Shown here: piece by piece, positions 8,639 through 42,403 of the stretch
How the letters are laid out: each line of letters begins with the position of its first letter
Position numbering within the stretch: position 1 is the stretch's first letter
DNA from: a virus
DNA: 50,487 bases
IMG/VR virus record: IMGVR_UViG_3300029852_000012
Location: 1 to 50,487 of that record
Direction: 5' to 3' (one strand)
Translations under genes and position numbers: made by a program
The notes under the pieces: model-generated
Database searches by the model: none
The model's input: only the letters and a program-made list of their open reading frames with translations
What the model was told of the DNA's origin: nothing

Positions 8639-8830
8639 GTGCTGGGGCTAGCTAATGTCTACAAGGTTAGACCCAGCACGTTATTAGATTTAACTGACCC
8701 TTATACTTCGTATTGTTTTGATGAAGCATGTGCATTTATCATTCAGAAAATGGAGAACAAAGAAGAACCTGTCTTTAGACAGAAATTCGGTTCATTTAAA
8801 GAAATGTATAAACATTACACGAATAAGTAA
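8639..8830 (+). CDS. Possible gpT-like frameshift extension of the chaperone, or a separate 63-aa ORF
   Basis: No SD precedes GTG 8639. The frame is open from 8597 and overlaps the last 29 nt of the chaperone gene in the +1 frame. Confidence 0.4.
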   Translation: MLGLANVYKVRPSTLLDLTDPYTSYCFDEACAFIIQKMENKEEPVFRQKFGSFKEMYKHYTNK

Positions 8831-8835
8831 GGGAG

Positions 8836-11800
8836 GTGAGAGATGTGGCCGTGGATGTTGGTTCAGCTACTGGTTACCTGGACCTTGATATTTCAGGATT
8901 TTTAGCCAATCTAAGAACTGCTCAAAGCGAAGCTGACAGAGTAAGCAAGAACATGGCAACTAAGGTTGGCAACAACATTACAGGTATTGGGAAAAGCATG
9001 ACTTCGGTTGGCTCAACTCTCACGAAATCTGTAACAGTTCCTTTGTTAGGTATTGGCACCGCTGGGCTTAAGGTCGCTTCAGACTTTGACTCAGCGATGT
9101 CTGGTGTTAAGGCAATTTCTGGAGCTACAGGTGAGGAGTTTGATGCATTAAGAGCTAAAGCAATTGAGCTTGGTGGTGAAACAGCTTTTAGTGCAAATGA
9201 AGTTGCTGAAGCTATGACAGAGATGGCTAAAGCCGGTTGGGATTCTCAGCAGATTCTTGATGGTATGGGCGGCGTTCTTGATGCCGCAGCTGCTTCAGGT
9301 GAAAATCTTGGAACAGTAAGTACTATTGTTGCTGATGCAATTACTGGTTTTGGTTTGGAAGCGAAAGAATCTACCAGAGTTGCTGACTTACTTACTCAAG
9401 CAGCGAATAGTGGTACGATTGGTATTAACGATCTTGGCGAATCGTTTAAGTATATTGCTCCTGTTGCAGGTTCAATGGGCTTAAGTATTGAAGACGTAAC
9501 GACTGCGTTGTCTGCAATGTCTATGTCTGGTATCAAAGGTTCTCAAGCAGGTACCTCTTTAAGGGGCGTGCTTACGAGAATGGTTAAGCCTACTGACCAA
9601 GTGGCAGCGGCGATGGATGAGCTTGGAATTGTACTCACAAATTCTGATGGTACGTTTAAGAGCTTAGACCAAATTCTTTCAGAAATGAGAGGAAGCTTCA
9701 GCGGTTTAACTGATGAGCAGAAAACATTTTATGCAGCAACGTTAGCGGGTCAGGAAGGTATGTCTGGTCTGCTGTCTCTGTTGAATATGTCTCAAGAAGA
9801 GTATGATGAGATTGCTGCAAGTATGGATAATGCCGGCGGTGTTGCGAAAGAAACTGCTGAAGTAATGAGAGACAATTTGTCGGCTGACGTCGAAGAGCTT
9901 ATGGGTTCTTTGGAAAGTTTAGCGATTACGTTGGCATCATTGATTGTTCCTGCTTTAAGAGACTTTGTTCAGTGGCTTACACAGCTGATTAACAAGTTCA
10001 CAGCTCTTAGTCCAGAGACTCAGAAAACAATTCTTACGATTGCAAGTATTGCAGTGGCTATTGGTCCGGTACTTATGGTGCTTGGTAAGCTGACAACGAG
10101 TGTTGGTAGTATAATTACTACATTCGGTAAAATCCCTGGAGCAATTGCAAAAGCCAAGAGTGCATTCACTGCAGTTAGTGCTGCCATTGGTGGAATCTCT
10201 GCTCCGGTTGTAGCTGTGGTTGCTGTGATTGGTGTTTTAATTGCTGCATTTGCAAACTTGTGGAAAACTAATGAAGAGTTCAGAAACAAGATGACAGCAA
10301 TTTGGGACGGTATAAAATCCAAGTTCGAATCGTTTGCTCAAGGCATAGTCGATAGGTTAAACGCTCTTGGCTTTGATTTTGAGAATTTTGGTGAGGTCGT
10401 AAAAGCAATTTGGGATGGCTTCTGTAGTTTGCTTGCTCCGATTTTTGAAGGAGTATTCAACCAAGTAAGTGTAATTCTTGGTTCAGCGCTTGATGCATTG
10501 ACTGGAATCTTTGATGTGTTTATCGGTATCTTTACCGGCAATTGGGACCAAGCCTGGCAAGGTGTCAAAGAGATATTTGGTGCTGTTTGGGATTTGATTA
10601 AGGGAACTTTTGAATCTTGGGCTATAGCATTCAAAGGAATTGCTGATACTGTGTTAGGTTGGTTTGGAACTACATGGGATGAGACTTGGACAAATATCAA
10701 GCAGTTCTTTGTAGATATTTGGAATGGAATCACTTCGTTCTTCTCGAATGTGATAAATTCCATTAAGATGGCGGTGTCCAATTTTATTACGACTATCATA
10801 AACTTCTTTGCTCAGCTTCCTACAAATATTGCTAACTTTATTACTAATGCTTATAATAGCGTGGTGACATGGGTAAGCAATATGGTCGCTAAGGCAAGGG
10901 AAATGGGACAAAATTTCCTGAATGCAGTCGTAAGTTTCTTCACAAATTTGCCATATAAGGTCGGCTACTTTATTGGTAATACTTTGACTAATATCGTAAT
11001 TTGGGCTGGTAATATGGTAACCAAAGCCAGGGAAATGGGAACGAACTTCCTCAACACTGTGGTATCGTTCTTTATTCAGCTTCCCGGAAAGATACTTCAA
11101 TTTATTACCAGTGCATTTAATAATGTTCAGATTTGGGCTACTAATATGGTAAATAAAGCTCGAGAGATGGGAACAAACTTTATTAACAATGTCGTTAGTT
11201 TCTTCACTCAGCTTCCTGGTAAAGTATTGCAGTTTATTACGAGTGCTCTCAATAATGTGCAAATGTGGGCCACTAATATGGCAAACAAAGCACGTGAAAT
11301 GGGTACTAACTTCATCAACAACGTAGTAAGTTTTATGCAGCAGCTACCAGGTAAAATTAAGCAGTATCTTGATAGTGCAATAAATAACCTCAAGACTTGG
11401 GTTACTCAGATGGGTCAAAAAGGTAAAGAGGCAGTTCAGTCACTTATCAACAATGTCATGTCGGCAGCAAGCGGTATTGCAAGTAAAGTTGCTTCTATTG
11501 GTAGTGACATTGTAAGTGGTGTTTGGAATGGTATAAAAGGTGCAGCAGGTTGGTTTAAGGACCAAGTGACAGGTTTCTTCTCTGGCATTGTTGATGGTGT
11601 GAAGGATGCTCTTGGTATCGGTTCACCGTCTAAGGTATTCAGGGATAAGATTGGTCGCTGGTTGCCACCTGGCATTGTTAAAGGTTTTGAAGCTGCAATG
11701 CCTTCGGCTATGAAAGCAATTCAGAAAGACTTGAATAAGGGAATCGATAATATTGACGCTGATGATATTTCAATTGGTGCCGGTATCACGGTATCTGGAT

Positions 11801-12155: not shown

Positions 12156-13058
12156 ATGGTCGAAGGAATCAAACTTCAGAATGTTGAGACCAGAGCTGTA
12201 TTAACTCTGGATATGATATCGACTCCTAATTATGTACTAAATTCTGTAGACTGGGGTTCTGTTGAAAGTACTCACCACTCCTACAAGTATGTGAATCAGA
12301 TTGGTGTGTATGTAACAGGCACCAGTTTGGAAACTCGACAGGTTGAAATTATTGGCTGGGTGATTGGAGATAACGAAGCAACGATGACACAAAGGAAATC
12401 AATATTGAATCGTTTCTTCAATCCTCAGCAAGCTGTCGATTTGTTCTATAAGAATTATGTATTAAGGTTTTTGCCGAATACATCAGTTAGGTATTCAACG
12501 GCTATAGCTGAGAACAATGAAGTTGTTTGTAAGTTTAGTGTTATTGGTTACTGCCCCGACCCGTTGTTTGGAGAAGAAACTGAAAATAAGGTTGCAGCAG
12601 CAAGTACGATTCCAAAGTTTCATTTTCCACTGATTATTTCGCAGACACCCAATCCTCCAGGAGGAATCATTTTTGGTTTAAGACAGCCAAGTTTGATTGT
12701 AGCTATTGAGAATAGTGGAGCTGTTGCCATAGGTATGCGTATTGTGTTTAAAGCAATTGGTACCTTGTCTGGGCCAAGTTTAATAAACGTTAATACACAG
12801 AAATATTTTAAAGTAAATAAAGAGATGACTGCCGGTGAGGAAATCGTTATTGATACAATCATTGGCCAGAAGAAAATTGAAGGAACGCTAAATGGTTTGA
12901 CATCGAACTACTTTAAGTATCGAGACCTTGATAGTGAGTGGCTGCAGCTGCAAGTTGGTACGAATCTATTTAGATATGATGCAGACCAAAACATTGAAAA
13001 TCTTGAAGTGTATATCTACTTCAGCAATAAGTATTTGGAGGTGCAAGAATGTTATTAG
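12156..13058 (+). CDS. Distal tail protein (Dit)
   Basis: 300 aa. It lies immediately downstream of the tape measure gene, as is typical for siphovirus tail-tip modules. Confidence 0.65.
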   Translation: MVEGIKLQNVETRAVLTLDMISTPNYVLNSVDWGSVESTHHSYKYVNQIGVYVTGTSLETRQVEIIGWVIGDNEATMTQRKSILNRFFNPQQAVDLFYKNYVLRFLPNTSVRYSTAIAENNEVVCKFSVIGYCPDPLFGEETENKVAAASTIPKFHFPLIISQTPNPPGGIIFGLRQPSLIVAIENSGAVAIGMRIVFKAIGTLSGPSLINVNTQKYFKVNKEMTAGEEIVIDTIIGQKKIEGTLNGLTSNYFKYRDLDSEWLQLQVGTNLFRYDADQNIENLEVYIYFSNKYLEVQECY

Positions 13059-14191
13059 AAAAGCAAATTCAGATATTGGTGTTTGAAGTAAATGATACGA
13101 CATTCGATAGTATTGGTGAAGTTAACCAGTATGAAAGTTTAATTTGGCCTGATAAGTTTAACGGGTTTGGTACTTTTGAATTATGGGCACCAATTACTGA
13201 TGAAAACTCGCAATATTTCAAAAAAGGGAATATACTTTGGTGCGGAGGAGATAATGCAGCGGTTGTTGAGATTGTTAAGTCTGAAATAGATGAGATTGGA
13301 ACGAAGACATATAATGTTAAAGGACGCACTCTTGAAATGTTATTGACGACTCGAATTATTTGGGGAACGTATAATGCAGTAAATAAAGATGTGTCTACTG
13401 CAATGTATGAAATCGTAAATCAGAACTGCGTAAATCCTTTAAATGCTAATCGTAAAATTCCATATTTGAAATTGGCAGAAGATTTGAAGTTTGGTGGCAA
13501 AATTACATACCAGAAAACTGGTGGTGAAGTTTATGATTCGTTAAGTACGATCGCAAGTACATATGACCTTGGATTTAATGTTCTATTTAAGCCAAAAACG
13601 AAAGAATTGATTTTTGAAGTAGTTGAAGGCGTAGACAGGACGGTTGAGCAAAGTACAAATGACCCTGTTGAGTTTAGTACCGAGCTTGAAGATTTGCTTT
13701 CGAGCTCTTATTATACGAATGACCAGGATGTTAAGAATGTTGCCTTTGTTCAAGGGGAAGGGAGCGGAAGCTCAAGAAAATCTGTAATTTCAGGTGAAGC
13801 AGATTCAAAAGGCTTCGGAAGAAGGGAGTTGTATGTTGATGCAAGAGACCTTCAATCGACATCAGTTGATGAGAACGGTGAAGAGCAGAATTTATCTCCA
13901 ACCGAGTATACGCAAGTATTAACTCAAAGAGGAGACGATAAACTATCTGAGTGCAAAACAACGGAAACGTTTGAAGCACAGATTCGAGTATTTGGTGATG
14001 TTCAGTATGAATTTGGAGTTGATTATAAAAAGGGCGATAAGGTTACGGTTCGTGATGAACAGCTTAATGTTGTTGTATCAGCTCGAATTACTGAAGTTCA
14101 AGAAGAATTTGATGATGAATATACTTTGGTATTAACGTTTGGGTATTCGTATCCGACGATAATGCAAAAAGTGAAGCAGCAAATATCTTAG
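13049..14191 (+). CDS. Tail-tip protein (Tal-like / siphovirus Gp37-like)
   Basis: 380 aa. The N-terminus ...FDSIGEVNQYESLIWPDKFNGFGTFELWAPIT... resembles the ReqiPepy6 Gp37-like tail family. It follows Dit. Confidence 0.6.
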   Translation: MLLEKQIQILVFEVNDTTFDSIGEVNQYESLIWPDKFNGFGTFELWAPITDENSQYFKKGNILWCGGDNAAVVEIVKSEIDEIGTKTYNVKGRTLEMLLTTRIIWGTYNAVNKDVSTAMYEIVNQNCVNPLNANRKIPYLKLAEDLKFGGKITYQKTGGEVYDSLSTIASTYDLGFNVLFKPKTKELIFEVVEGVDRTVEQSTNDPVEFSTELEDLLSSSYYTNDQDVKNVAFVQGEGSGSSRKSVISGEADSKGFGRRELYVDARDLQSTSVDENGEEQNLSPTEYTQVLTQRGDDKLSECKTTETFEAQIRVFGDVQYEFGVDYKKGDKVTVRDEQLNVVVSARITEVQEEFDDEYTLVLTFGYSYPTIMQKVKQQIS

Positions 14192-14204
14192 GAGGTGAGG
14201 TAAA

Positions 14205-15152
14205 TTGGAACGCTGTGGATTTTTTGATGCGAATCTTGTAGGTGAAGAATATGATAGAGTCTATTTGGCAGCTCAGTTCGCAGCTTATTTTGCGAGCTTC
14301 ATTGGAAATGGAGTTTATGCAGAACATTCAAATCAGTTGCAGGTTGTAGCAATGCCTACACCTCAAATGCAGGTTGGTGTTGAAAAAGGACAAGGCTGGA
14401 TTAACGGGTATTGGTATGAAAACACAGACACGATGTATTTACCAATTGAAGTTGCTGATGGTGTTCTAAATCGAATTGATTCAATCGTATTACGTCTTGG
14501 TTTTGCTGAACGTAATATGTGGTTGATGGTGAAGAAAGGAACGCCAGCTGTAAATCCAATCGCTCCTGAGGTAACAAGAACCGCAGACTATTATGATTTA
14601 CAGTTGGCTACTGTTAGTATTCCTGCCAGCTCAATCAGGATTACTCAAGCACAGATTCAAGATACGAGAATGAATCAAGATGTTTGTGGTTGGGTAACAG
14701 GCGTGGTTAAGCAGCTTGATACGACAACTTTGTTTAATCAGTTTGAGGCGTATTTTCAAGAGTTCAAAGAGAATAATCAGGCTGATTATGAAGAGTGGAC
14801 TGAAACACAAAAGCAAGCTTGGCTTTCATGGGTTTCTGGGCAAGAAACAGATTTTACTGATTGGACGGATGAGCAGAAAGAAGAATATGAAACTTGGTAC
14901 GCGACGCATATCAATCAGTGGCAGTCTGATTTTGATACCTGGTTTGAAAACATTAAAGACCAGCTTGGAGAAGATGCTGCAGGAAATTTGCAGAATCAAA
15001 TTGATGAGCATGAAGCAAGATTGAATAATCTTGAAATGATGTTACTTGCTACAGGTATGCTTTTTGCAGCTAATGAAATTTCGTCCGGCGAATGTTTAAC
15101 AACGAATGACGATTATGTGTTGTTGTTCCAGTGGCCAATTTGTCAGTGTTAA
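14205..15152 (+). CDS. Tail fibre / receptor-binding complex protein
   Basis: TTG start after AGGAGGTGAGG. The N-terminus GFFDANLVGEEYDRVYLAAQFAAYFASFIGNGVY is typical of Firmicutes phage fibre anchors. The C-terminus is W/E/Q-rich coiled coil. Confidence 0.6.
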   Translation: MERCGFFDANLVGEEYDRVYLAAQFAAYFASFIGNGVYAEHSNQLQVVAMPTPQMQVGVEKGQGWINGYWYENTDTMYLPIEVADGVLNRIDSIVLRLGFAERNMWLMVKKGTPAVNPIAPEVTRTADYYDLQLATVSIPASSIRITQAQIQDTRMNQDVCGWVTGVVKQLDTTTLFNQFEAYFQEFKENNQADYEEWTETQKQAWLSWVSGQETDFTDWTDEQKEEYETWYATHINQWQSDFDTWFENIKDQLGEDAAGNLQNQIDEHEARLNNLEMMLLATGMLFAANEISSGECLTTNDDYVLLFQWPICQC

Positions 15153-15196
15153 GTTTAACAAACTATAAACAATAAATGAACAAGGAGGAAAATATA

Positions 15197-16135
15197 ATGA
15201 GTGTACTTTCTGTACAAACTAAAAAGATTCCTGAGTTACAAGCTACTACAGATATTGTTGAAAACGACATGATTATTGTTGAGCTTGCAGACGGTGGCAC
15301 AAGAAAGATGACGTATAGTGATTTTATCACCGTAATTAAGGCTTCACTGGAATATCCTGATGAAGCAGTACTTAGTATGGCAGATGTTGTTAACGTTCAG
15401 ACGAATGACGAAACAAAGATTCCCACAGCCAAGCTCGTATATGATATGTATCAGGCTGATGCTGTAATGCGCAGGGAAATGGATTGTTTGAACGGTATCA
15501 AAGAAAAAGGTAACCTTATTGACATTGATACGTTGATGGGTTATGTAAAAGCCGGAGAGCATCACAAATATGCTATCGGTGATTATTTCGAAGATAATGG
15601 TATTCAGTGGGCAGTTGCAGCACGTAACTGGTACCCCGCATGGGCATTCGGGGATAGTGTTTCAAGACCTGAGCATATTGTGTGTATGCCTGTTGATTTT
15701 CTTGCAACATCTTATCAGTTCAATACATCAAATACTAATACTGGTGGTTATGCCGGAAGTTTGATGCCTGCAAATATGGAAACCGAGTTTGGTAAGCTTG
15801 GTTCCAAAGTTAAAGCTTATTGTAAGCAAACTCGTATTTATGAGAACAACAAAGGTGCCTGGGCAGCAGCAATGAGAAGCATGAGACTTCCTACTATTGT
15901 TGAGGTGACCGGAAACCAGGGCTGGGCAAATGAAGGATATTCTGGTGGTGTATGCAGCCAGTTGCCTTTGTGTCAGAACTCTCTTTTCAGGATTCGTTCT
16001 ACATGGTATTGGTGTTTAGACCCTTCTTCTGCAAGCACCGCGTACTTTTGCATTGTCAACACCCTCGGCGGCATTAGCGGCCCCAACAACGCCTCCAACT
16101 CTGGGCGGGTTCGCCCGTTAATCGTTCTTGCTTAA
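15197..16135 (+). CDS. DGR target protein: tail-fibre-like protein with C-terminal variable region
   Basis: ATG 15197 after AGGAGG, 312 aa. The C-terminus ...TWYWCLDPSSASTAYFCIVNTLGGISGPNNASNSGRVRPLIVLA looks like a DUF1566/C-type-lectin-fold ending. The last ~90 nt are homologous to TR. Confidence 0.8.
   Translation: MSVLSVQTKKIPELQATTDIVENDMIIVELADGGTRKMTYSDFITVIKASLEYPDEAVLSMADVVNVQTNDETKIPTAKLVYDMYQADAVMRREMDCLNGIKEKGNLIDIDTLMGYVKAGEHHKYAIGDYFEDNGIQWAVAARNWYPAWAFGDSVSRPEHIVCMPVDFLATSYQFNTSNTNTGGYAGSLMPANMETEFGKLGSKVKAYCKQTRIYENNKGAWAAAMRSMRLPTIVEVTGNQGWANEGYSGGVCSQLPLCQNSLFRIRSTWYWCLDPSSASTAYFCIVNTLGGISGPNNASNSGRVRPLIVLA
16037..16125 (+). repeat. DGR variable repeat (VR)
   Basis: Aligns to 16811..16895. 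In the first 60 TR positions there are 11 mismatches at TR adenines, plus 5 non-A mismatches and one 3-nt insertion. Confidence 0.8.
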
Positions 16136-16144
16136 TCATCAATC

Positions 16145-16164
16145 GTGGCGGCGAAAGCCGACAC
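16145..16164 (+). promoter_or_regulatory. Hairpin with GAAA tetraloop 10 nt after the target-gene stop (DGR target-recognition hairpin and/or terminator)
   Basis: GTGGCGGC-GAAA-GCCGACAC: 8-bp stem with one G.A mismatch. No T-run follows. Confidence 0.5.
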
Positions 16165-16189
16165 ATAATGATTCGAAGGAGGAACTAAT

Positions 16190-16750
16190 GTGAGCGTACC
16201 AAAATGGAGAAGGTCTGGTTCTAAATTGGACGCATTTTATGAAGCTGTTAAGTTACGACATATCGTGACACAGATGATAATGCGCTCATACGGAATGAAG
16301 ACAAAGCACAAAAGTTTAATTCCTGATAGACTTAGGGATAAATATTCTGACCTTGCAAAATTGTTTGAGAAAATTGATAAGTATCAAACAAAGGTTGAGG
16401 AAACTAAAGTGCTTAGTAAGTATGATGATTGGATAGTTTCACGAACGAGGAATAATCTTTTTAAGTATACATCAAATTTGGTTGCTCATATCTCTGCAGC
16501 CAATGAGATTAAGTGCACACTTGATTTTGAGTTTAAGAAGAGAATTTCGCTGGAAGATGAAGCTATAAGTGATATCGCCAATATTAGGCAGGAAGTTCAA
16601 TTTGTTGAAGAGTTCTTTGACATTGATTTGAATAAGTATATGGAGTACTCTGAGCAATTGGAGAAAACTAAGAATTATTTGTATCGATGGAAAAAGTCAA
16701 CAGTGAATGAGTATAAGAAGTTCTTAGAAGAGAAAGAAGGAAAGCAATAG
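16190..16750 (+). CDS. avd: Accessory variability determinant (Avd)-like protein, putative
   Basis: GTG start after AGGAGG. 186 aa, helical and basic, in the canonical position between VR and TR. It is longer than the ~130-aa classical Avd. Confidence 0.5.
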   Translation: MSVPKWRRSGSKLDAFYEAVKLRHIVTQMIMRSYGMKTKHKSLIPDRLRDKYSDLAKLFEKIDKYQTKVEETKVLSKYDDWIVSRTRNNLFKYTSNLVAHISAANEIKCTLDFEFKKRISLEDEAISDIANIRQEVQFVEEFFDIDLNKYMEYSEQLEKTKNYLYRWKKSTVNEYKKFLEEKEGKQ

Positions 16751-16810
16751 ATTGATGAACGGAGGGCAGCAGGCCGTAAAACAAAATGCTGCATGGGTTA
16801 CGTGCTAAAA

Positions 16811-16895
16811 ACCGCGAACTTTTGCAATGTCAACAACAATGGCAACTCGAACAACAACAACGCCTCCAATGCCAACGGCTTGGCCCCGATATCGT
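16811..16895 (+). repeat. DGR template repeat (TR), non-coding
   Basis: Adenine-rich. In the VR frame it reads T A N F C N V N N N G N S N N N N A S N A N, i.e. AAC/AAT codons. It lies between the avd-like gene and the RT. Confidence 0.8.
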
Positions 16896-17082
16896 AATGG
16901 TTTACTAAATGTAGGCTCTGACCGATTCAAATCAAAAACGATAGGAGTGCGTGACCCTGGCTAACGCCTAAATTTATGGTGTGAGTTTTCACCATACTCA
17001 TGTAGTATGCGACGTACCTTAGTTTAGGTCATGAAAAGACTAAACGACTAAGTGGTACTATAAGCGGCCATTTAATTTTACT
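16896..17082 (+). ncRNA. Structured TR-RT spacer (probable 3' part of the DGR template RNA)
   Basis: No ORF. Contains hairpins ATGGTG-tgagtttt-CACCAT and the imperfect long hairpin CTTAGTTTAGGTC-atgaaaa-GACTAAAcgACTAAG. Confidence 0.45.
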
Positions 17083-17664
17083 ATGAAACAAGTTCAATAT
17101 ACAGATTATGATAGTGTAGCAAACGCGAACAATCTAATGAAGTCAGGAAAGAAGTGCATAGGTGGTGTTTCTTGGAAATATTCAACTCAAAACTTTTATC
17201 TTGACAGAATTCGTCGAGTTAGGAAGTCAAAAGAGCGGCTTGACAATATGGAAAGAATGTCTGATGGTTTTACGACGTTTAAGATAAATGAACGAGGTAA
17301 AATCAGGAATATACGCTCTGTGCACATAAATGAGAGAATGGTTCAGAAAGCTCATTCGGAATTGACATTAGTTCCAAGGCTTCGACCAAAATTGGTGTAT
17401 GATAATTATGCATCTCTTGAAGGACGAGGAATACAAATGGCCTTTGATAGATTGAAGGTGCATTTGTGGAGATATTACCGAAAGCATGGAAACAATGAAG
17501 GCTATATTTTAGTTGCAGATTTACACGCGTATTTTGATAGCATTGACCATGATTGTGTGTATGAGCAATTGAGTAAAGTTTTCAAAGATGATTTGAAGTC
17601 GTTGTATTTGACGATGGATTTTGTTGATGCATTTGGTGATAAGTCTTTGGGATTAGGAAGTTAA
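17083..17664 (+). CDS. DGR reverse transcriptase, N-terminal fragment (ends at an in-frame TAA)
   Basis: Contains FKINERGKIRNIRSV, NERMVQKA and ADLHAYFDSIDH (RT motifs 1-3). It terminates inside ...SLGLGS* of the LGxxxSQ motif. Confidence 0.85.
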   Translation: MKQVQYTDYDSVANANNLMKSGKKCIGGVSWKYSTQNFYLDRIRRVRKSKERLDNMERMSDGFTTFKINERGKIRNIRSVHINERMVQKAHSELTLVPRLRPKLVYDNYASLEGRGIQMAFDRLKVHLWRYYRKHGNNEGYILVADLHAYFDSIDHDCVYEQLSKVFKDDLKSLYLTMDFVDAFGDKSLGLGS

Positions 17665-17682
17665 GTATCTCAAATTCTTGCA

Positions 17683-18261
17683 ATGTTTTATCCGAATAAG
17701 ATTGACCATTATATAAAAGAAGTTCTCAAGATTGAGGGTTTTGGAAGATACAATGATGACTTTATTCTTATACATGAAGACAAAGCATATTTGCAATATT
17801 GTCTTGATAAGATAATCGAAATGTATGGAGAGTTAGGAATAGAGTTAAATCAAAACAAAACTAAGATTTGTAAGCTTAGTACAGGTTTTAAGTTTCTAAA
17901 AACAAAAGTTCATTTGACCGAAACGGGTCGTGTTGTAATAAGGCCTGATAGAAAGTCAATAGTTCGGGAACGAAGAAAACTGAAAAAGCTTAAGACAAAA
18001 CTTGATGCTGGTGAAATCGAGTTTGAAGAAGTAAGGCAGCAGTATATGTCATGGAGGGGCTATATTGCAAAGTTTGATTCGTATAAAACTCTTAAAGATA
18101 TGGATAAGTTATTTGATGAGTTATTCATATTTAATTGGCATCAAAGCGAACAAGAACAAATTAAGAAGAAAAGGAGGAATTCTTACAATGTTAAATATGG
18201 AGACAAGCAAAGTCCAGCTTGCAGACGGCACGGTCTTGAACTTGAGGCTGAATGGGACTGA
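17683..18261 (+). CDS. DGR reverse transcriptase, C-terminal fragment (same frame as 17083..17664)
   Basis: Same frame as the upstream fragment. The sequence after the stop reads VSQILAMFYPNKIDHYI...GRYNDDFILIH (YxDD box), followed by a thumb-like basic region. Confidence 0.85.
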   Translation: MFYPNKIDHYIKEVLKIEGFGRYNDDFILIHEDKAYLQYCLDKIIEMYGELGIELNQNKTKICKLSTGFKFLKTKVHLTETGRVVIRPDRKSIVRERRKLKKLKTKLDAGEIEFEEVRQQYMSWRGYIAKFDSYKTLKDMDKLFDELFIFNWHQSEQEQIKKKRRNSYNVKYGDKQSPACRRHGLELEAEWD

Positions 18262-18559
18262 GTATGAATCGGATGAAGTGATTGAGGATGAAGTTCTTAG
18301 TGCATCAAATCTTGAGGATGTTACGATCGATGATGTGCATGAGGGCAAGATGGTTCTTAATTCTAAGTATCCGTTTGGTACTGGAACTCGTTTTAGTTTG
18401 AGGCATCAGACTGATGTTGAGAAGCTTATGGATGAGGTGTCCAAGGTTTCCAATGAAGCAAAGACTGCGACTAACACAGCAAACGAAGCAAAAGAAATGG
18501 CACAAACTGGAAGTGAATATGCCAAGGCCGGCAAGATTTTGCTTGGTGAGGAGGTATAA
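18188..18559 (+). CDS. Hypothetical protein (tail-fibre-associated region)
   Basis: ATG 18188 after AGGAGG, 123 aa. Overlaps the RT 3' end in another frame. Confidence 0.65.
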   Translation: MLNMETSKVQLADGTVLNLRLNGTEYESDEVIEDEVLSASNLEDVTIDDVHEGKMVLNSKYPFGTGTRFSLRHQTDVEKLMDEVSKVSNEAKTATNTANEAKEMAQTGSEYAKAGKILLGEEV

Positions 18560-18562
18560 GCT

Positions 18563-18988
18563 ATGAGTGAAATTATTGATAAGGCTTATACATTAAGAGC
18601 CAAGATTGAGCAGATGTCTCAGAATACGATTACGGAAGATGCCGAAGCTCTTGATTATTCGGAGCTCTTTCCTAATTGGGATGGAAATGGAGTAAAATAC
18701 ACTGCAGGATTCAGAGTCCGTTATAATGGTGTATTATATAAAGTTTTGCAGGAGCATGTATCTCAGGAAACTTGGAATCCAGTAGAGGCTCCAAGTTTGT
18801 TTGCAGAGGTTCTTATTCCTGACCCTGGTGTTATTCCTGAATGGAAGCAGCCTGAATCTACTAATGGTTATGCCAAAGGTGATAAGGTTACTCATAATGG
18901 AAAGACTTGGGAGTCTCAGGTTGATAACAACGTTTGGGAGCCTGGTGTTGGAGGAACTGAATCTTTGTGGTTTGAAGTTACCGGTTAA
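18563..18988 (+). CDS. Protein with two CBM5/12-like carbohydrate-binding repeats, putative
   Basis: 141 aa. Two repeats: YTAGFRVRYNGVLYKVLQEHVSQETWNPVEAPSLF and YAKGDKVTHNGKTWESQVDNNVWEPGV...LW. Confidence 0.5.
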   Translation: MSEIIDKAYTLRAKIEQMSQNTITEDAEALDYSELFPNWDGNGVKYTAGFRVRYNGVLYKVLQEHVSQETWNPVEAPSLFAEVLIPDPGVIPEWKQPESTNGYAKGDKVTHNGKTWESQVDNNVWEPGVGGTESLWFEVTG

Positions 18989-19014
18989 AATCAGCTTAGT
19001 AGGAGGATGCAGAT

Positions 19015-19326
19015 ATGTCAGATAGTCCAATTATGAGAGCTGAGCACGAAGAGTTCGTAAGGAGAATGGAGGAAGAACATAAGCACCAAAATAAGCGACT
19101 CGACCTTCTTGAAAAGCAAACTGAACAGATTACCGACATTGCTATGTCTACCAAGGAGCTTGCAATTAGTGTAAAGCAAATGGCAGAGGAGCAAAGAGAG
19201 CAGGGAAACAGACTCGAGAAATTAGAAGGGCGAGATGGTGAAATGTGGCGCAAAGTAGTTGGCTACGTCATAACTGCAGTGATTGGTATTCTGATTGGCT
19301 TCGTGTTTCGGCAAATTGGAATGTGA
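19015..19326 (+). CDS. xhlA: XhlA-like haemolysin / lysis-associated membrane protein
   Basis: 103 aa. N-terminal coiled coil (...RLEKLEGRDGEMWRKV) followed by one C-terminal TM helix (VGYVITAVIGILIGFVF), the XhlA architecture. Confidence 0.6.
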   Translation: MSDSPIMRAEHEEFVRRMEEEHKHQNKRLDLLEKQTEQITDIAMSTKELAISVKQMAEEQREQGNRLEKLEGRDGEMWRKVVGYVITAVIGILIGFVFRQIGM

Positions 19327-19366
19327 GAAGTTGAAAAGACAATTGAATTTTTGATTGATGTGTGTA

Positions 19367-19384
19367 GGGTGGCGAAAGCTGCCC
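19367..19384 (+). terminator. GAAA-tetraloop hairpin after the structural operon
   Basis: GGGTGGC-GAAA-GCTGCCC: 7-bp stem with two G.U pairs. Lies 40 nt after the xhlA-like stop. No strong T-run. Confidence 0.45.
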
Positions 19385-19437
19385 TATGCGCATTTCTACA
19401 CAGCAAAACTTTTTTCAAAAACTTTTCAAAAAAGGTA

Positions 19438-19466
19438 TGTACAAATTCAAAATAACATGGTATAAT
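19438..19466 (+). promoter_or_regulatory. Promoter P2: TGTACA-N17-TATAAT
   Basis: TGTACA 19438-43 and tgGTATAAT with TATAAT at 19461-66. Upstream is ttttcaaaaacttttcaaaaaa. Confidence 0.7.
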
Positions 19467-19522
19467 ATAATCAGGTTAAAGATAAGGCCTACAAAATAAT
19501 GAGTGTTCAGGAGGAACGAAAA

Positions 19523-19903
19523 ATGTACAAATTCTTAAATCTACATCCAAAAGGAAAAATAGTTGGTGATTGTGTAAAACGAGCAATTGCAGGTGCAGAA
19601 AATCGTGATTACATGGAAGTTCAAAGGGAACTTAATCGTTTGAAGAAGGAAACACATTGTGATTGTTTCAATAACAGAAAGAACATTACAGCGTATATGC
19701 AGAAGCATGGTTACATAAAGCTTAGCTTTCCTGCAGTTAAAGGTGAACCTCGAATGAACGGTGAAAGATTCTGCCAAGCATATTCAAAAGGACGATATAT
19801 CTTAAATATGGCCGGGCATCTTACATGTTGTGTTGATGGTGTTATTTATGACACATGGGACTGCTCACAGAAATGTGTGTATAACGCATGGAAAGTTCGA
19901 TAA
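19523..19903 (+). CDS. Hypothetical early protein with a possible Cys/His/Asp papain-like pattern
   Basis: ATG 19523 after AGGAGG, 126 aa. Contains GDCVKRAI...GHLTCCVDGVIYDTWD. Confidence 0.6.
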   Translation: MYKFLNLHPKGKIVGDCVKRAIAGAENRDYMEVQRELNRLKKETHCDCFNNRKNITAYMQKHGYIKLSFPAVKGEPRMNGERFCQAYSKGRYILNMAGHLTCCVDGVIYDTWDCSQKCVYNAWKVR

Positions 19904-19911
19904 ATTAGGGG

Positions 19912-19940
19912 TGTACAAGTTGCACCCTATATGGTATAAT
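19912..19940 (+). promoter_or_regulatory. Promoter P3: TGTACA-N17-TATAAT
   Basis: TGTACA 19912-17 and tgGTATAAT with TATAAT at 19935-40. Starts 9 nt after the upstream stop codon. Confidence 0.65.
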
Positions 19941-19979
19941 AAAATCATAAACAAAACAAATGCTTAGGAGGGCAAAACA

Positions 19980-20264
19980 ATGACAGTTAACTATAATACT
20001 TACAATGAAGAGAAAAAGGCGTTCTTTAAGAAACATAATAATGATTTTAGATGTGATACATCTTCTATGGATGAGTACGGACGCTATTGGAAAACATACA
20101 CTTTTGAAGATGGTGCTCAGTGGTATGAAGCAATGTCACCTGAGTATGTGTCCCAAGAGGTTGAAGTTAAGATGTGTAAGATGAACATCGAAGTTAAGAT
20201 GTTTAGAACAGAGTTTTGGAATACTGATGATGCTTCTTCTAAATATTATTACGAAAAATTTTAA
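19980..20264 (+). CDS. Hypothetical early protein (94 aa)
   Basis: RBS AGGAGG. The ORF ends at TAA 20262-64, directly abutting the hammerhead motif. Confidence 0.7.
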   Translation: MTVNYNTYNEEKKAFFKKHNNDFRCDTSSMDEYGRYWKTYTFEDGAQWYEAMSPEYVSQEVEVKMCKMNIEVKMFRTEFWNTDDASSKYYYEKF

Positions 20265-20321
20265 GTCACCCTGATGAGTCTTTGAAAATTAAGACGAAAC
20301 CGGCATAAGCCGGTCGGTGGC
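20265..20321 (+). ncRNA. Hammerhead self-cleaving ribozyme motif, type I topology
   Basis: GUCACC / CUGAUGA / GUCUU-UGAAAAUU-AAGAC / GAA / A-CCGGC-AUAA-GCCGG-U / C | GGUGGC. All invariant core nucleotides are present and three helices can form. Predicted cleavage is after C20315. Confidence 0.8.
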
Positions 20322-20356
20322 ATGCGGCTACCAAATTATCAAAGGAGGACATAGGT

Positions 20357-20869
20357 ATGTCAAAAGAAAATTTACAGAACAAAACTTGCAAAGAGCTCAG
20401 AGAGCTTGCAAAGGACATGAACATCTCTGGTAGATGGGACATGACCAAGGACCAGTTGATTGATGCAATCTTAGGAGCGGAAGTGTTAGAGAAAAACGAT
20501 GAATCTGAAAGTGCTAAAGACGAATGTAAGATTGACAATCACGATGTCGTAGAGGTGGAAGATAAAGTTGAGAAAGAATCCGCCAACGTCAATGTTGATA
20601 TGGCTCAGAAGATGCCGTATATTGAAAACGTCGAAATCGGTACTTTGGTTGCTTTCCGTCTTTCCAATGGTAAGGTAAAATCTGCTAAGGTCACTCGTAA
20701 GTCTACCAAGAATCGTAAGCTTAAGCTTGAGACTGATTATGGTGCTGAGTACATTATATCTTTTGATGATATTGTATGGGTACGTACAGGTAAGCGTTGG
20801 CCTCGTGGAGTTTATAAGCTTTTGAAAGGATTGGTGGATGAGAATGGCAAAGAGGAACAGAAAAGCTAA
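20357..20869 (+). CDS. HeH/Rho-N-like domain protein, hypothetical
   Basis: 170 aa. The N-terminus KTCKELRELAKDMNISGRWDMTKDQLIDAIL is paralogous to the N-terminus of 44967..45449. Confidence 0.7.
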   Translation: MSKENLQNKTCKELRELAKDMNISGRWDMTKDQLIDAILGAEVLEKNDESESAKDECKIDNHDVVEVEDKVEKESANVNVDMAQKMPYIENVEIGTLVAFRLSNGKVKSAKVTRKSTKNRKLKLETDYGAEYIISFDDIVWVRTGKRWPRGVYKLLKGLVDENGKEEQKS

Positions 20870-21401
20870 ACTTAGTTCGACTGAGTGTAGACAATCTGTT
20901 CGTAAGTTCTTTGAGAGACAATCGAGATTTAAGCAGGTGCAATCACAGTTCAATGAATTGAAAGCACAATTCAGCAGTGATATGGAGGACTATTTTGAGT
21001 GTGAAGGCATCGATAAGTCACTTACGTTTTCGTATGATGATTTAGTCGAAAGCGACTTGGTGGTCAATCGTATTCAAAAGTCAAGTGTTGAGTTCGACCC
21101 TGATAAGCTTGCAAAAGCTTTAGGAAAACAGCTTGCTAAGCAGGTAATAATTAAGAAGTACGAAATCACTGACATGGACGCATTGATTGCTTACCTTAAA
21201 GAATGTGATGTGGACCCTAAAATCTTTAAGTCGTTCTTGAATGTGTCACAAACAGTTGATACTCAGGAGCTTGATAGACTTGAGGAGATTGGGAAGATAA
21301 CCGCAGAACAGGTAAAAGGTTGCTACACTGTAAAACGTCAGAAACCCTATTTCACTGTTGGTGTGAAACGAGGGCATGACGATGGAGAACAAAAGTGGTG
21401 A
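20838..21401 (+). CDS. Hypothetical protein (187 aa)
   Basis: Long ORF with an AAGGA RBS. Overlaps its neighbours by ~30 nt at both ends. Confidence 0.65.
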   Translation: MRMAKRNRKAKLSSTECRQSVRKFFERQSRFKQVQSQFNELKAQFSSDMEDYFECEGIDKSLTFSYDDLVESDLVVNRIQKSSVEFDPDKLAKALGKQLAKQVIIKKYEITDMDALIAYLKECDVDPKIFKSFLNVSQTVDTQELDRLEEIGKITAEQVKGCYTVKRQKPYFTVGVKRGHDDGEQKW

Positions 21402-22356
21402 AGCATTAGCAAAGGTTTTATGGTATTATAATCTGATACCTGATGTTGCATCATTAAGTCAGAAAATCGTTTGTCCTTTTCATGACGATGTAAACCCAAG
21501 CATGATTGTGAATTTTGAAGATGGTTCATGGTTTTGCTTTGGATGTGGATTGACTGGTGATGCAAAGAAGTTTGTAAAGCTTATGGAGTCCAATTACAAT
21601 GGGCTGAATGACTTGCAGGCTTATCAAAAATATCTTCGTATTCTGAAATCCGATAAGTGTAGCGGTATAAAACTGGATAGGTCTCTGATTAAACAGAAGT
21701 CACTCCAGAGGGATTTATATAATGAAGCCTATGATTACTACCACGGATTAAGAAAAGTTAACTGGAGGGATTCTGATGAACCTGAGGTGGTGGCTGCTAG
21801 AGAATACATGACCAAGAGAGGATTCAAGCCAGGTACCCTACATAAATGCAAAGCCAAGGTTACATATAATAAGAGTTATGGAATCATATTCCCAATGCTT
21901 GACAATGGAAAGTTCAAAGGTTGGGTATGTCGTACGATGATTAAGTCGGTTGAAGAACGACGCAAATATCTATACAATGAAGGATTCAGTCGAGCAACAA
22001 CTCTTGTGGGCGATTATGGAACTAAAGACTATGTGTTTGTGGTTGAGGGTTACATGGACCGATTGAAGTTTGTGCAATTTGGTGAAGACAATGTGGTTGC
22101 TATTTTAGGTTGGAAAATGTCACCTCAGCAAATTCAAAAGCTGAAAGACAAAGGAATCACGAAAGTGATAAGTGCATTGGACAATGATGAGTGTGGTCGC
22201 AAAGGTACTAAATTTCTTGAGCAACATTTCGAGGTAACGAGATTCAAATATCTCAAAGGAATAAAGGACCCAGGTGATATGACTCAAGAGTTGTTCGATA
22301 AAATGTTTAAGAAAACTATGGAAATCTATGAATCAAAAACAAGGAGGAAACCATAA
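21376..22356 (+). CDS. dnaG: DNA primase (DnaG-type: CHC2 zinc finger plus TOPRIM)
   Basis: Contains CPFHDDVNPSMIVNFEDGSWFCFGCG, then VVEGYMD and ALDNDECG. In-frame ATG 21382 has better SD spacing. Confidence 0.9.
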   Translation: MTMENKSGEALAKVLWYYNLIPDVASLSQKIVCPFHDDVNPSMIVNFEDGSWFCFGCGLTGDAKKFVKLMESNYNGLNDLQAYQKYLRILKSDKCSGIKLDRSLIKQKSLQRDLYNEAYDYYHGLRKVNWRDSDEPEVVAAREYMTKRGFKPGTLHKCKAKVTYNKSYGIIFPMLDNGKFKGWVCRTMIKSVEERRKYLYNEGFSRATTLVGDYGTKDYVFVVEGYMDRLKFVQFGEDNVVAILGWKMSPQQIQKLKDKGITKVISALDNDECGRKGTKFLEQHFEVTRFKYLKGIKDPGDMTQELFDKMFKKTMEIYESKTRRKP

Positions 22357-23198
22357 TGGGTTTAGTCGATAAAATTAAGCAGGATGTAAAAAGGTCCGGT
22401 CAGAACAAAGGTAAGTTCATCTACTTCAGAGAAGGTCAGAAAATCAGAGTTCGTTTCTTGACTGATATGGACGACGGAATGGAAGTTACATTCCATGATA
22501 GTTTTGAAGCCGGAATCAATGTTCCTTGTCAGGAGCTTTTCGGAAAGGATTGTCCTTATTGTGATGATGACAGTCTTCGTACTCGTTCTCAGTATATCTG
22601 GTCTGTATGGAATTATGAGACCAAGGAAGTTCAGCTGTTCATGTTCCCTGTGAATAACTGCAGCCCGATTCCTGCACTGATGGCAATGTATGAGAACTAT
22701 GGCACAATCACTGACCGTGACTATGTGATTAGTGTTTCCGGCAAGCAGCAGAATAAGACGTTCTCTGTTGTTCCTATGGACAAGGTTAAGTTCAGAAATG
22801 AAAAGGCGAAAGCTTACTCTGAAAAGTCTATCCTTAAGATGCTTGATAAGGCATTCCCTTGTGATGCAACTGAGGATGACGATGAAGAAGAGGATGAGGC
22901 ACCTAAGAAACGTGCTCCGAAGTCTACTGGCAAGAAGAACACTCGTAAGCCTGAGCCGGAAGATGATGACGATGAGGATGATTACGACAACGAGGATTGG
23001 TGCGAAGAGGAGGAAGACGATGTAGTCGATTACTCTGAAATGTCTGCCAAAGAGTTGTACAACCTCTGTAAGGAACGTGACATTAAGGTAGCTCCAAAGA
23101 AACCTGCTAAGTATTACATCAATCAGCTTGAGGAATGGGATGCTGCTCAGGAAGACTGGGGTGAAGAGGAGGAAGACGATGAATGGGAAGACGACTAA
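22356..23198 (+). CDS. Putative ssDNA-binding protein (gp32-like Zn/OB pattern) with HeH motif and acidic tail
   Basis: 280 aa. Contains ...KIRVRFL...H...CQELFGKDCPYCDD..., the C-terminal motif SAKELYNLCKERDIKVAPKKPAKYY, and DDEEEDE / EEEDDEWEDD tails. Confidence 0.5.
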   Translation: MGLVDKIKQDVKRSGQNKGKFIYFREGQKIRVRFLTDMDDGMEVTFHDSFEAGINVPCQELFGKDCPYCDDDSLRTRSQYIWSVWNYETKEVQLFMFPVNNCSPIPALMAMYENYGTITDRDYVISVSGKQQNKTFSVVPMDKVKFRNEKAKAYSEKSILKMLDKAFPCDATEDDDEEEDEAPKKRAPKSTGKKNTRKPEPEDDDDEDDYDNEDWCEEEEDDVVDYSEMSAKELYNLCKERDIKVAPKKPAKYYINQLEEWDAAQEDWGEEEEDDEWEDD

Positions 23199-25536: not shown

Positions 25537-25974
25537 ATGTGGGTGATTTTCGAAGGGCTTGATAAGGCCGGTAAAACAACTTTGGAATGGGAGTTTCTGA
25601 AAGTAACAAATTTCAAGCATGTTGTGATTGACAGAGGCCCTGTTGGTTACATGACCTTTGATAAGATTCTTGGTCGTGAAACAAAGCTTGGCAATCAGGA
25701 GTTTATCCACCAGGCACGAAAGATTATGAAGTCTGATGACTTTATGGTTGTGTATTGCACAGTGGAAAAAGAAACTGCTGAGGAACGTCTTACACTTCAC
25801 AGTGAGACTTGTCCTTATGATTATGCTAAAGCTCAGAAACTTTATCGCAACAATGTTCGTAGGTACTACAAGCCTGAGAAAACACTTGAGCTTGATACTA
25901 CAAACAAAAGCATTGATGAGTGTGTTGAGCTGATTGTTGAAAAGCTTAAGGAGGTACAGCAAGGTGAATTGTAA
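25537..25974 (+). CDS. dNMP (thymidylate-type) kinase
   Basis: 145 aa. P-loop MWVIFEGLDKAGKTT. Size and placement next to the TS homologue fit the call. Confidence 0.7.
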   Translation: MWVIFEGLDKAGKTTLEWEFLKVTNFKHVVIDRGPVGYMTFDKILGRETKLGNQEFIHQARKIMKSDDFMVVYCTVEKETAEERLTLHSETCPYDYAKAQKLYRNNVRRYYKPEKTLELDTTNKSIDECVELIVEKLKEVQQGEL

Positions 25975-42007: not shown

Positions 42008-42403
42008 ATGAAGAGATTCTTTAGTATTATGGGTGCAATCATCGTTGATGTTGTACGAGCTGTTGATTATTTCATTACAAGCAACCTTAGGAATTTTGCT
42101 TGGATTTTGAATTTCATTCTTCCGTATCTGATGTATATCGTAGGTCAGAATGTATGTGCAACAAGAGGTTATCTTGGTGTAGGTGGTGAGCTGTTCATAC
42201 CGATTGTATTTTGTGTGATTACATACGTACTTCGTTCTTACGCAAATAAGATTGGTAAAGGTACAACTATTCCGGTACCTGATAAGAGATTCACTGAAGT
42301 TGATGACTATGGTGAAGTATCTATCCCGAACAATCGTATTCAGGAATTGATTTTGTACTTGGCTGACCTTGAGGACTGGCTTGAACGTAAAGGCCTGTTA
42401 TAA
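42008..42403 (+). CDS. Membrane protein (131 aa, 2-3 TM helices), hypothetical
   Basis: Hydrophobic N-terminal two thirds. The stop codon lies inside the left arm of palindromic element C. Confidence 0.65.
   Translation: MKRFFSIMGAIIVDVVRAVDYFITSNLRNFAWILNFILPYLMYIVGQNVCATRGYLGVGGELFIPIVFCVITYVLRSYANKIGKGTTIPVPDKRFTEVDDYGEVSIPNNRIQELILYLADLEDWLERKGLL

Follow-up and report, generated by a model that had tools for sequence, protein, structure and literature searches.

What would a gut phage gain from placing a self-cleaving ribozyme between an exchangeable small gene and its replication genes? The question is raised by IMG/VR virus record IMGVR_UViG_3300029852_000012, considered here from position 1 to 50,487 (this whole stretch of 50,487 nucleotides being referred to below as the window), where the + strand reads at 20265-20321 as a complete type I hammerhead with all the invariant core nucleotides present. 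Judging from this sequence and from its relatives, the element is a genuine conserved type I hammerhead RNA structure. Its function is probably a constitutive processing of mRNA comparable to that of the engineered RiboJ part, by which the 5' end of the replication mRNA would be both fixed and protected.

The hammerhead and its relatives

Helix I comprises six pairs with a single U.G among them (U20266.G20320), while the pairs next to the core are all present, namely 10.1-11.1 (G20278-C20295), 15.1-16.1 (A20299-U20314) and 1.1-2.1 (G20316-C20270). Residue H17 is C20315, i.e. not a G. As helices II and III are capped, by the loops UGAAAAUU and AUAA respectively, and helix I is open, the topology is that of type I. 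The minimum free energy (MFE) fold of the 57-nt stretch corresponds exactly to the three-way junction (-21.2 kcal/mol, z = -3.66), none of 200 shuffles being as good. The preliminary description of this DNA, made from the letters only, had given the motif base by base, with type I topology, the full invariant core and a C at H17, a cut after 20315, a location adjoining the TAA of a gene of 94 amino acids (aa) with the next ATG at 20357, and an alternative pairing GGUGGC-AUGCG-GCUACC at 20316-20332. The sequence read, the MFE junction and the covariation in the family agree with it to every coordinate, the predicted cut being consistent with the hammerhead numbering. The parts of the element, all on the + strand, are as follows:

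20262-20264, +: TAA stop of the 94-aa open reading frame (ORF), adjoining helix I, with A20264 as position 2.7 (sequence read)
20265-20270, +: 5' strand of helix I, GUCACC, positions 2.6-2.1 (sequence read and MFE fold; six of six pairs covary in relatives)
20271-20277, +: catalytic core C3 U4 G5 A6 U7 G8 A9, CUGAUGA (sequence read)
20278-20295, +: helix II GUCUU/AAGAC with its loop UGAAAAUU, a highly conserved module (sequence read and relatives)
20296-20298, +: core G12 A13 A14, GAA (sequence read)
20299-20314, +: helix III, i.e. the A15.1-U16.1 pair and CCGGC/GCCGG with the loop AUAA (sequence read and MFE fold; five of six pairs covary)
20315-20316, +: predicted cleavage site between C17 (20315) and G1.1 (20316) (hammerhead numbering)
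20316-20321, +: 3' strand of helix I, GGUGGC (sequence read, MFE fold and covariation)
20316-20332, +: alternative hairpin GGUGGC-AUGCG-GCUACC, which excludes helix I (sequence read and predicted fold)

A loose core pattern without helices matches three times in the window vs. 0.45 expected, and such a pattern alone is thus weak evidence; the second match, at 25733, was rejected as a hammerhead for want of helices. A covariance model, R2, was built on 17 relatives with the window and its close kin left out. Scanned over the whole window of about 50 kb, it scores the site at 76.9 bits (E 3.7e-23) and reveals no further hammerhead, the next best site reaching at most 11 bits.

The relatives share a 30-nt string made of CUGAUGA, helix II with its loop, and CGAAAC. 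This identical string is found in at least 120 IMG/VR viral contigs and in 32 species-representative bacterial genomes, mostly Clostridia and metagenome-assembled genomes of Bacillota, with Bacteroides, Elusimicrobia, Melainabacteria and others besides. From one locus to another, the sequences of helices I and III are unrelated yet always complementary (e.g. AUCCU/AGGAU, GCCCC/GGGGC or ACUGC/GCAGU), and both helices covary strongly. In a gap-free alignment of 19 sequences, 96.3% of the cells pair vs. 71.4% when shuffled, with a covariation score of 0.593 vs. 0.116. For 97 distinct model-aligned sequences, double changes occur at 15 of the 17 pairs and 95.4% of the cells pair vs. 69.3% when shuffled and 33-48% with slid partners; being fitted to the model, this larger alignment somewhat favours the structure, but the gap-free one agrees with it. 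The presence of G.U pairs in the family fits with pairing in the RNA of the + (gene) strand. Regarding the core, H17 in relatives is C in 101 cases, U in 21, A in 10 and never G, and N7 (U, C or A) is the only varying position, except for one copy where U4 is changed to C. Even helix II has rare compensatory variants, namely GUAUC/GAUAC, GUAUU/AAUAC and GUCGU/ACGAC.

The anatomy of the subfamily was established from 88 non-redundant representatives, on which the family-wide figures below are also based unless another number is given. The length of helix I is 5-6 bp and that of helix III 3-11 bp, the loops of the latter being variable, while hardly any variation is seen in helix II or its loop, in part because both were required by the search; co-resident copies found by the model have the loop UGARAAUU, and GGAAGAUU is the loop in the Agathobaculum phage AB434P2. 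Position 2.7, located 7 nt upstream of C3 (A20264 in the window), is an A in 86 of the 88 representatives, and position 2.6 is an A in 67. As the A at 2.7 is kept with or without an ORF ending there, the frequent TAA beside helix I may double as a part of the ribozyme. The conservation of this unpaired A2.7 and of loop II suggests, from sequence comparison, a tertiary contact between loop II and the end of helix I. A perfect 6-bp pseudoknot in the window, between AAUUUU (20257-62) and AAAAUU of loop II (20285-90), was rejected as a coincidence.

Of the cultured phages, AB434P2 (OP172633.1, L121 2224-2280, about 42214-42270) bears a homologous hammerhead of type I that is missing from its annotation and is scored at 67 bits by model R1. 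This copy lies between two hypothetical genes about 1 kb upstream of the primase, and phage AB434P3 gives the same match. A homologous copy is thus at hand in a cultured pair, phage AB434P2 on A. butyriciproducens DA434.

The variable slot and the replication module

The surroundings of the ribozyme comprise the following features:

19912-19940, +: promoter-like site TGTACA-17 nt-TATAAT with a TG extended -10 (TGTACA-17-TGgTATAAT; 10 of 12 matches, TG present)
19980-20264, +: 94-aa orphan ORF occupying the variable slot which separates promoter and ribozyme (ORF call)
20341-20359, +: Shine-Dalgarno (SD) sequence AAAGGAGG (20341-48, with GGAGG at 20344-48) and ATG (20357-59) of the downstream gene (sequence read)
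20357-20869, +: 170-aa protein with an N-terminal Rho_N (HeH/SAP-like) domain, first gene of a conserved module (Pfam/PHROG)

Following the Rho_N gene come an ORF of unknown function, a DnaG-type primase (21376-22356) and an SSB-like gene (22356-23198). The ribozyme-bearing transcript is probably driven from the 19912-19940 site, considering its sequence; the 31-nt motif of this site occurs once in the window and is conserved in L040, L065, L018, L038, L113 and L069. It is overlapped by an inverted repeat, GGGTG-N9-CACCC, which could possibly be an operator.

Outside the motif, megablast retrieved no close deposited phage relatives, and the window primase is 43-48% identical to its nearest counterparts, from cultured Clostridium_AP and Agathobaculum phages. 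The closer comparison is with eight metagenomic relatives. Homology of 92-98% with L009, L018, L038, L081 and L113 begins at 20256-20267, that is at the first bases of the ribozyme, and extends through the replication genes, while the promoter block (19902-19979) is kept in L018, L038, L113 and L069. In between, the slot is occupied by a protein of 94-99 aa in the window, L040, L065 and L030, and by unrelated ORFs of 54-222 aa in L038, L113, L081, L009, L089, L084 and L043; at least eight unrelated orphan ORFs are known from the slot. The 94-aa orphan has no Pfam or PHROG match, and no usable Pfam or PHROG function was obtained for eight different slot ORFs; that slot genes serve anti-defence is a speculation. 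No ORF at all is present in L018 (about 1328-1482) and L069 (about 1648-1770), where the ribozyme lies within about 25-60 nt of the promoter, and the SD-containing leader of the orphan gene retained in L018 suggests a cassette deletion. The ribozyme is thus inherited together with the downstream module, and it stays even where the upstream gene is missing.

Across the family, the element is co-oriented with the flanking ORFs. An upstream ORF is present in 52 of the 88 representatives, in most cases with a gap of 0-1 nt between its stop (mostly TAA) and helix I; on the other side, a median of 40 nt separates the cut from the following start codon. The genes downstream are diverse and mostly orphans, with Rho_N in 5 of 49 and single occurrences of YqaJ, RecE-like and primase genes; one shared downstream partner gene for the family was accordingly rejected. 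Such diversity matches an earlier remark on the inconstant identities of the genes beside phage hammerheads (PMC3088659).

It had been proposed at first that the ribozyme separates the transcript of the gene starting at 19980 from the replication-module mRNA. This is plausible considering the promoter-like site and the Rho_N, primase and SSB-like genes downstream, but the separation has no object in L018 and L069. Because these two relatives have no gene there, what is conserved seems, from this comparison, to be less the separation of two cistrons than the definition of the 5' end of the downstream mRNA.

Further upstream, the gene order is a reverse transcriptase over two ORFs, a CBM5/12 protein, a holin-like gene and an unknown ORF, before the promoter-like site and the 94-aa orphan. 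The reverse transcriptase (phrog_1423, Pfam RVT_1) is split into 17083-17664 and 17683-18261 (+), about 2 kb upstream of the ribozyme, and no direct repeats of at least 40 nt, as possible template and variable repeats (TR/VR) of a diversity-generating retroelement, were detected in 13000-19500. After the holin-like gene, a GC-rich stem-loop (AGGGUGGC-GAAA-GCUGCCCU, 19366-19386, +) without a U-tract was not called by the terminator scan. An earlier promoter-like site with the same design of TGTACA-17 nt-TATAAT and TG is located at 19438-19466 (+), and L009 and L081 also have a site of this type ahead of their slot ORFs.

The predicted 5' hairpin and the proposed fate of the RNA

In the course of the constitutive processing favoured here, a transcript from 19912-19940 would carry the ribozyme, helices I-III would form, and the RNA would cut itself between C20315 and G20316. 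The whole body of the ribozyme would remain on the 5' fragment together with the leader and the 94-aa cassette gene, this fragment ending in a 2',3'-cyclic phosphate behind two stable hairpins, and the 3' fragment would be the replication-module mRNA, with a 5'-OH at G20316. As helix I becomes intermolecular after the cut and has only 6 bp, it would dissociate, and its 3' strand (20316-21) would refold with 20327-32 into a hairpin forming the very 5' end of the 3' product. This refolding would prevent religation, rendering cleavage effectively irreversible, and would leave the SD sequence and the ATG accessible. Ribozyme-made 5'-OH ends are substrates of RNase J1 in B. subtilis (PMC3328962); in a Firmicute host, the hairpin would therefore also hide the 5' end from 5' exonuclease. 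The net result would be a constant and context-independent 5' end for the replication genes, whatever the slot gene. Cleavage as such, protection by the hairpin and insulation as the advantage under selection are our inferences.

In the predicted fold of the isolated 3' product, the hairpin forms from nucleotide 1 (-9.4 kcal/mol) and neither the SD sequence nor the ATG is paired with it. At the family level, the 3' strand of helix I pairs better with the bases following it in the same sequence than with those taken from other members. For the 5' end of the product, the mean MFE amounts to -3.45 vs. -1.72 +/- 0.15 for controls, and the fraction with at least four paired bases is 0.43 vs. 0.28, the highest of 200 controls being 0.39-0.42. 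With one representative per unique helix I strand (n = 46), the mean MFE is -2.88 vs. -1.44 +/- 0.19, and none of 1000 permutations is as low. The hairpin exists in about 20 sequence versions, e.g. GGUGAU..AUCAC, GGC..GCC, GGUU..AACC, GGGUU..GCCC, GGGGCC..GGCU, GCGGU..ACCG or GGUC..GACC, and the ribozyme of AB434P2 has its own one, GGGA-UUAU-UCCC. The hairpin is a real but not universal feature of the family. The idea first put forward, that it stabilises the downstream fragment or gates cleavage, is plausible and gains in part from this recurrence in relatives with different sequences.

More broadly, it is conceivable, though rather doubtful at this stage, that gut phages possess here a natural plug-and-play insulator, where the upstream gene is cut off, the hairpin locks the reaction and shields the 5'-OH from RNase J-type decay, and the replication output stays constant, leaving the slot free to swap accessory genes, possibly for anti-defence; in the hairpin covarying with helix I, the hammerhead motif would then have a conserved extension that had not been described before. 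If this model of insulator and hairpin is true, it would provide a biological rationale for a widespread ribozyme family, and synthetic biology would gain a compact part of natural origin for use in Firmicutes.

Several points weigh against constitutive processing. Cleavage by any member of the subfamily, the window site included, is a prediction from sequence, and both the protection from RNase J and the RNase content of the host are assumed. With a helix I of only 6 bp and no tertiary contact demonstrated, activity at physiological Mg2+ is not assured; a pseudoknot between loop II and the upstream sequence is not enriched among the 88 representatives (45% vs. 40% background), as the sequences preceding ordinary TAA stops contain complementary 4-, 5- and 6-mers at least as often, and a reversed control string gives the same picture. 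The hairpin itself is found in only about 45% of the family and is absent from the AGGAUU group of very large contigs. In the n = 46 set, its enrichment is marginal by the count criterion (p ~0.07), and a tie to SD-type (Firmicute-like) leaders is not claimed, the Fisher test being borderline (p = 0.053). Energies slightly favour the hairpin over helix I, and it could thus slow cleavage and not merely follow it. Besides, recognition by covariance models, anticipated in the preliminary description, held for the purpose-built R2 and failed for Rfam: in release 15, no match at gathering score was obtained over the whole window. Below threshold, RAGATH-1-hammerhead (RF03152) aligns end to end with 22.5 bits vs. 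a gathering score of 56.3, its upstream hairpin region aligning poorly, so that the site falls short of RF03152, and Hammerhead_3 aligns partially with 21.7 bits vs. 48.5. More than 25 clear type I relatives in 16 loci likewise fail to reach the gathering score of any Rfam hammerhead model, and the Rfam miss thus reflects a limit of model coverage and not a refutation. Current Rfam models overlook, at their thresholds, an abundant type I subfamily of gut phages.

The main rival to constitutive processing is a gated ribozyme, in which the 20316-32 hairpin, possibly with a pairing between core and SD region, competes with helix I and makes cleavage conditional. Transcription speed, translation of the upstream ORF, temperature or some factor could act as the trigger, which would adjust, in the course of infection, how much of the mRNA is cut and how much stays uncut. 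Before cleavage, the hammerhead fold (-22.7 kcal/mol) is predicted to lie 1.6 kcal/mol above the alternative one (-24.3 kcal/mol), and helix I occupies about 5% of the ensemble, but these nearest-neighbour energies ignore tertiary contacts and their difference is within the model error. The MFE fold of 20240-20360 not only forms the hairpin but also pairs CCUGAUGA of the core (20270-20277) with UUAUC..AGG (20336-20345) beside the SD sequence, and a mutual masking of the core and the ribosome-binding site is thereby possible in the uncut RNA, as far as this modelled fold goes. Where an upstream ORF exists, its stop so close to helix I in most cases means that a terminating ribosome would cover this helix, and regulated phage hammerheads were proposed earlier (PMC3088659). 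Against gating, the ribozyme is fully transcribed ahead of the competing 3' arm, there is no evident ligand-binding or sensor domain, about half of the family has no hairpin at all, and L018 and L069 have no upstream ORF. On balance, gating is unlikely.

As a lesser rival, the cut could serve mainly the upstream fragment, the ribozyme body acting as a terminator-free stabiliser of the 3' end of the cassette gene; in a variant of this explanation, the 5'-OH destabilises the downstream mRNA, as with glmS, and sets a differential expression. With a type I topology, it is the 5' product that retains helices II and III, the terminator scan of 18500-21500 predicts no intrinsic terminator, 5'-OH ends set off decay by RNase J1 in B. 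subtilis (PMC3328962), and differing stabilities of transcripts after ribozyme processing have been suggested (PMC6765202). The inheritance of the ribozyme with the downstream module instead of the upstream gene, and its maintenance in L018 and L069 where there is no such gene, speak against it, and the enriched 5' hairpin argues for a protection of the downstream RNA and not for its sacrifice; this explanation appears improbable.

Alternatively, the 30-nt block could be mainly a boundary at the DNA level where divergent phages recombine and swap modules, RNA cleavage being secondary or lost. While the identical 30-mer in phages of several bacterial phyla, the homology breakpoints exactly at the element and the two to three copies in some genomes would suit it, the compensatory changes and G.U pairs of helices I and III, the strict core, the absence of G17 and the constant orientation with the genes are left unexplained, and such a role, at best an added consequence of conservation, is very improbable as the main one. 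Finally, a chance or decayed and inactive hammerhead-like motif, for which the failure at Rfam gathering scores and the short helix I could be invoked, is hardly credible in the face of the score with an independent model, the perfect core, the strong covariation and a position kept in related phages, the cultured one included.

Comparison with known ribozymes

As already stated in the preliminary description, hammerheads are a known class in bacterial and phage genomes: those of types I-III, found around small genes, were reported to be active in vitro and in vivo (Perreault et al., 2011, PMC3088659), and finding one more member would not surprise a specialist. The same core and three-helix junction, the intergenic location in phage and prophage operons, the several copies sometimes flanking varied small genes and the proposed processing of polycistronic RNA are common to those hammerheads and to the present ones. 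The window subfamily differs by an almost invariant GUCUU-UGAAAAUU-AAGAC, an open helix I of 5-6 bp, a near-invariant A2.7, no detectable pseudoknot and a helix I 3' strand which often forms, by prediction, a 5' hairpin after cleavage. A literature search with the exact helix II sequence retrieved no paper containing it, the supplementary datasets of earlier surveys being outside this search. Of the Rfam hammerheads compared, RF03152, RF00008 (Hammerhead_3) and RF00163 (Hammerhead_1), the core of RF03152 aligns end to end but the upstream RAGATH-1 hairpin is absent from the window site, whereas the helix II and loop resemble the consensus GuCccUGAaAuAgGaC of RF00008, which is however of type III with an open helix III. 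True RAGATH-1 hammerheads, Hatchet and Pistol ribozymes are carried by related contigs.

RiboJ, which combines the sTRSV hammerhead with a 23-nt hairpin, raises the expression of the insulated gene, and its terminal hairpin was proposed to increase mRNA stability (PMC6206723). By analogy of function, the window has this layout, with a ribozyme between a variable upstream RNA and the ribosome-binding site and a hairpin at the new 5' end; in both, the hammerhead stands between promoter or leader and ribosome-binding site and the variable upstream RNA is, or would be, cut off. RiboJ is nonetheless engineered and derived from type III, so that its cleavage leaves a large part of the ribozyme attached to the downstream RNA, and it owes its hairpin to a separate, appended element, whereas the window element is natural, of type I, and would obtain its hairpin from the refolded 3' strand of helix I. 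As for the glmS ribozyme and RNase J1 (Collins et al., 2007, as far as reported in PMC3328962), the resemblance lies in a self-cleaving RNA in the 5' leader of a Firmicute-type mRNA which yields a downstream fragment with a 5'-OH. glmS is metabolite-dependent, structurally unrelated, and exposes its 5'-OH so that the mRNA is destroyed, whereas the window element has no ligand domain and a 5' end predicted to be base-paired.

The function of phage and prophage hammerheads was listed as unresolved in a 2019 review (PMC6765202). The layout, which runs from the promoter through a swappable orphan gene (or none), the ribozyme and the refolding 5' hairpin to the SD sequence and the replication genes, makes this question testable. 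Three features are worth following up, namely the post-cleavage hairpin with its covariation, the location bordering a swappable cassette slot, and the near-invariant A2.7 and loop II.

Regarding copy number, many contigs hold two to three type I copies flanking single small ORFs of about 60-100 aa, which resemble the clustered prophage hammerheads described in 2011. Three copies are present in L110, three copies about 400 nt apart in L006, L013, L017, L027, L045, L068, L090 and L096, and L016, L033, L035, L053, L075, L092 and L111 are other multi-copy contigs; within one contig, copies differ in helices I and III and at times in helix II.

The contigs of the 16 loci also yield, with Rfam, Hatchet (3), Pistol (3), RAGATH-1-hammerhead and RAGATH-6/7/9/14, a company which is a known ribozyme-rich phage neighbourhood. 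Besides, the identical module of CUGAUGA, GUCUU-UGAAAAUU-AAGAC and GAAAC occurs in circularly permuted hammerheads of type III, with a closed upstream helix I hairpin (e.g. GUAUC-UGUA-GAUAC) and an open helix III (GCUGUC.../...GAAACAGC), in the contigs L014, L046, L060, L066, L086, L095, L102, L044 and L118. The one in L014 (core at 8818-8847, - strand) has as neighbours three Hatchet ribozymes, RAGATH-6/7/9/14 RNAs, a tRNA and a permuted tmRNA.

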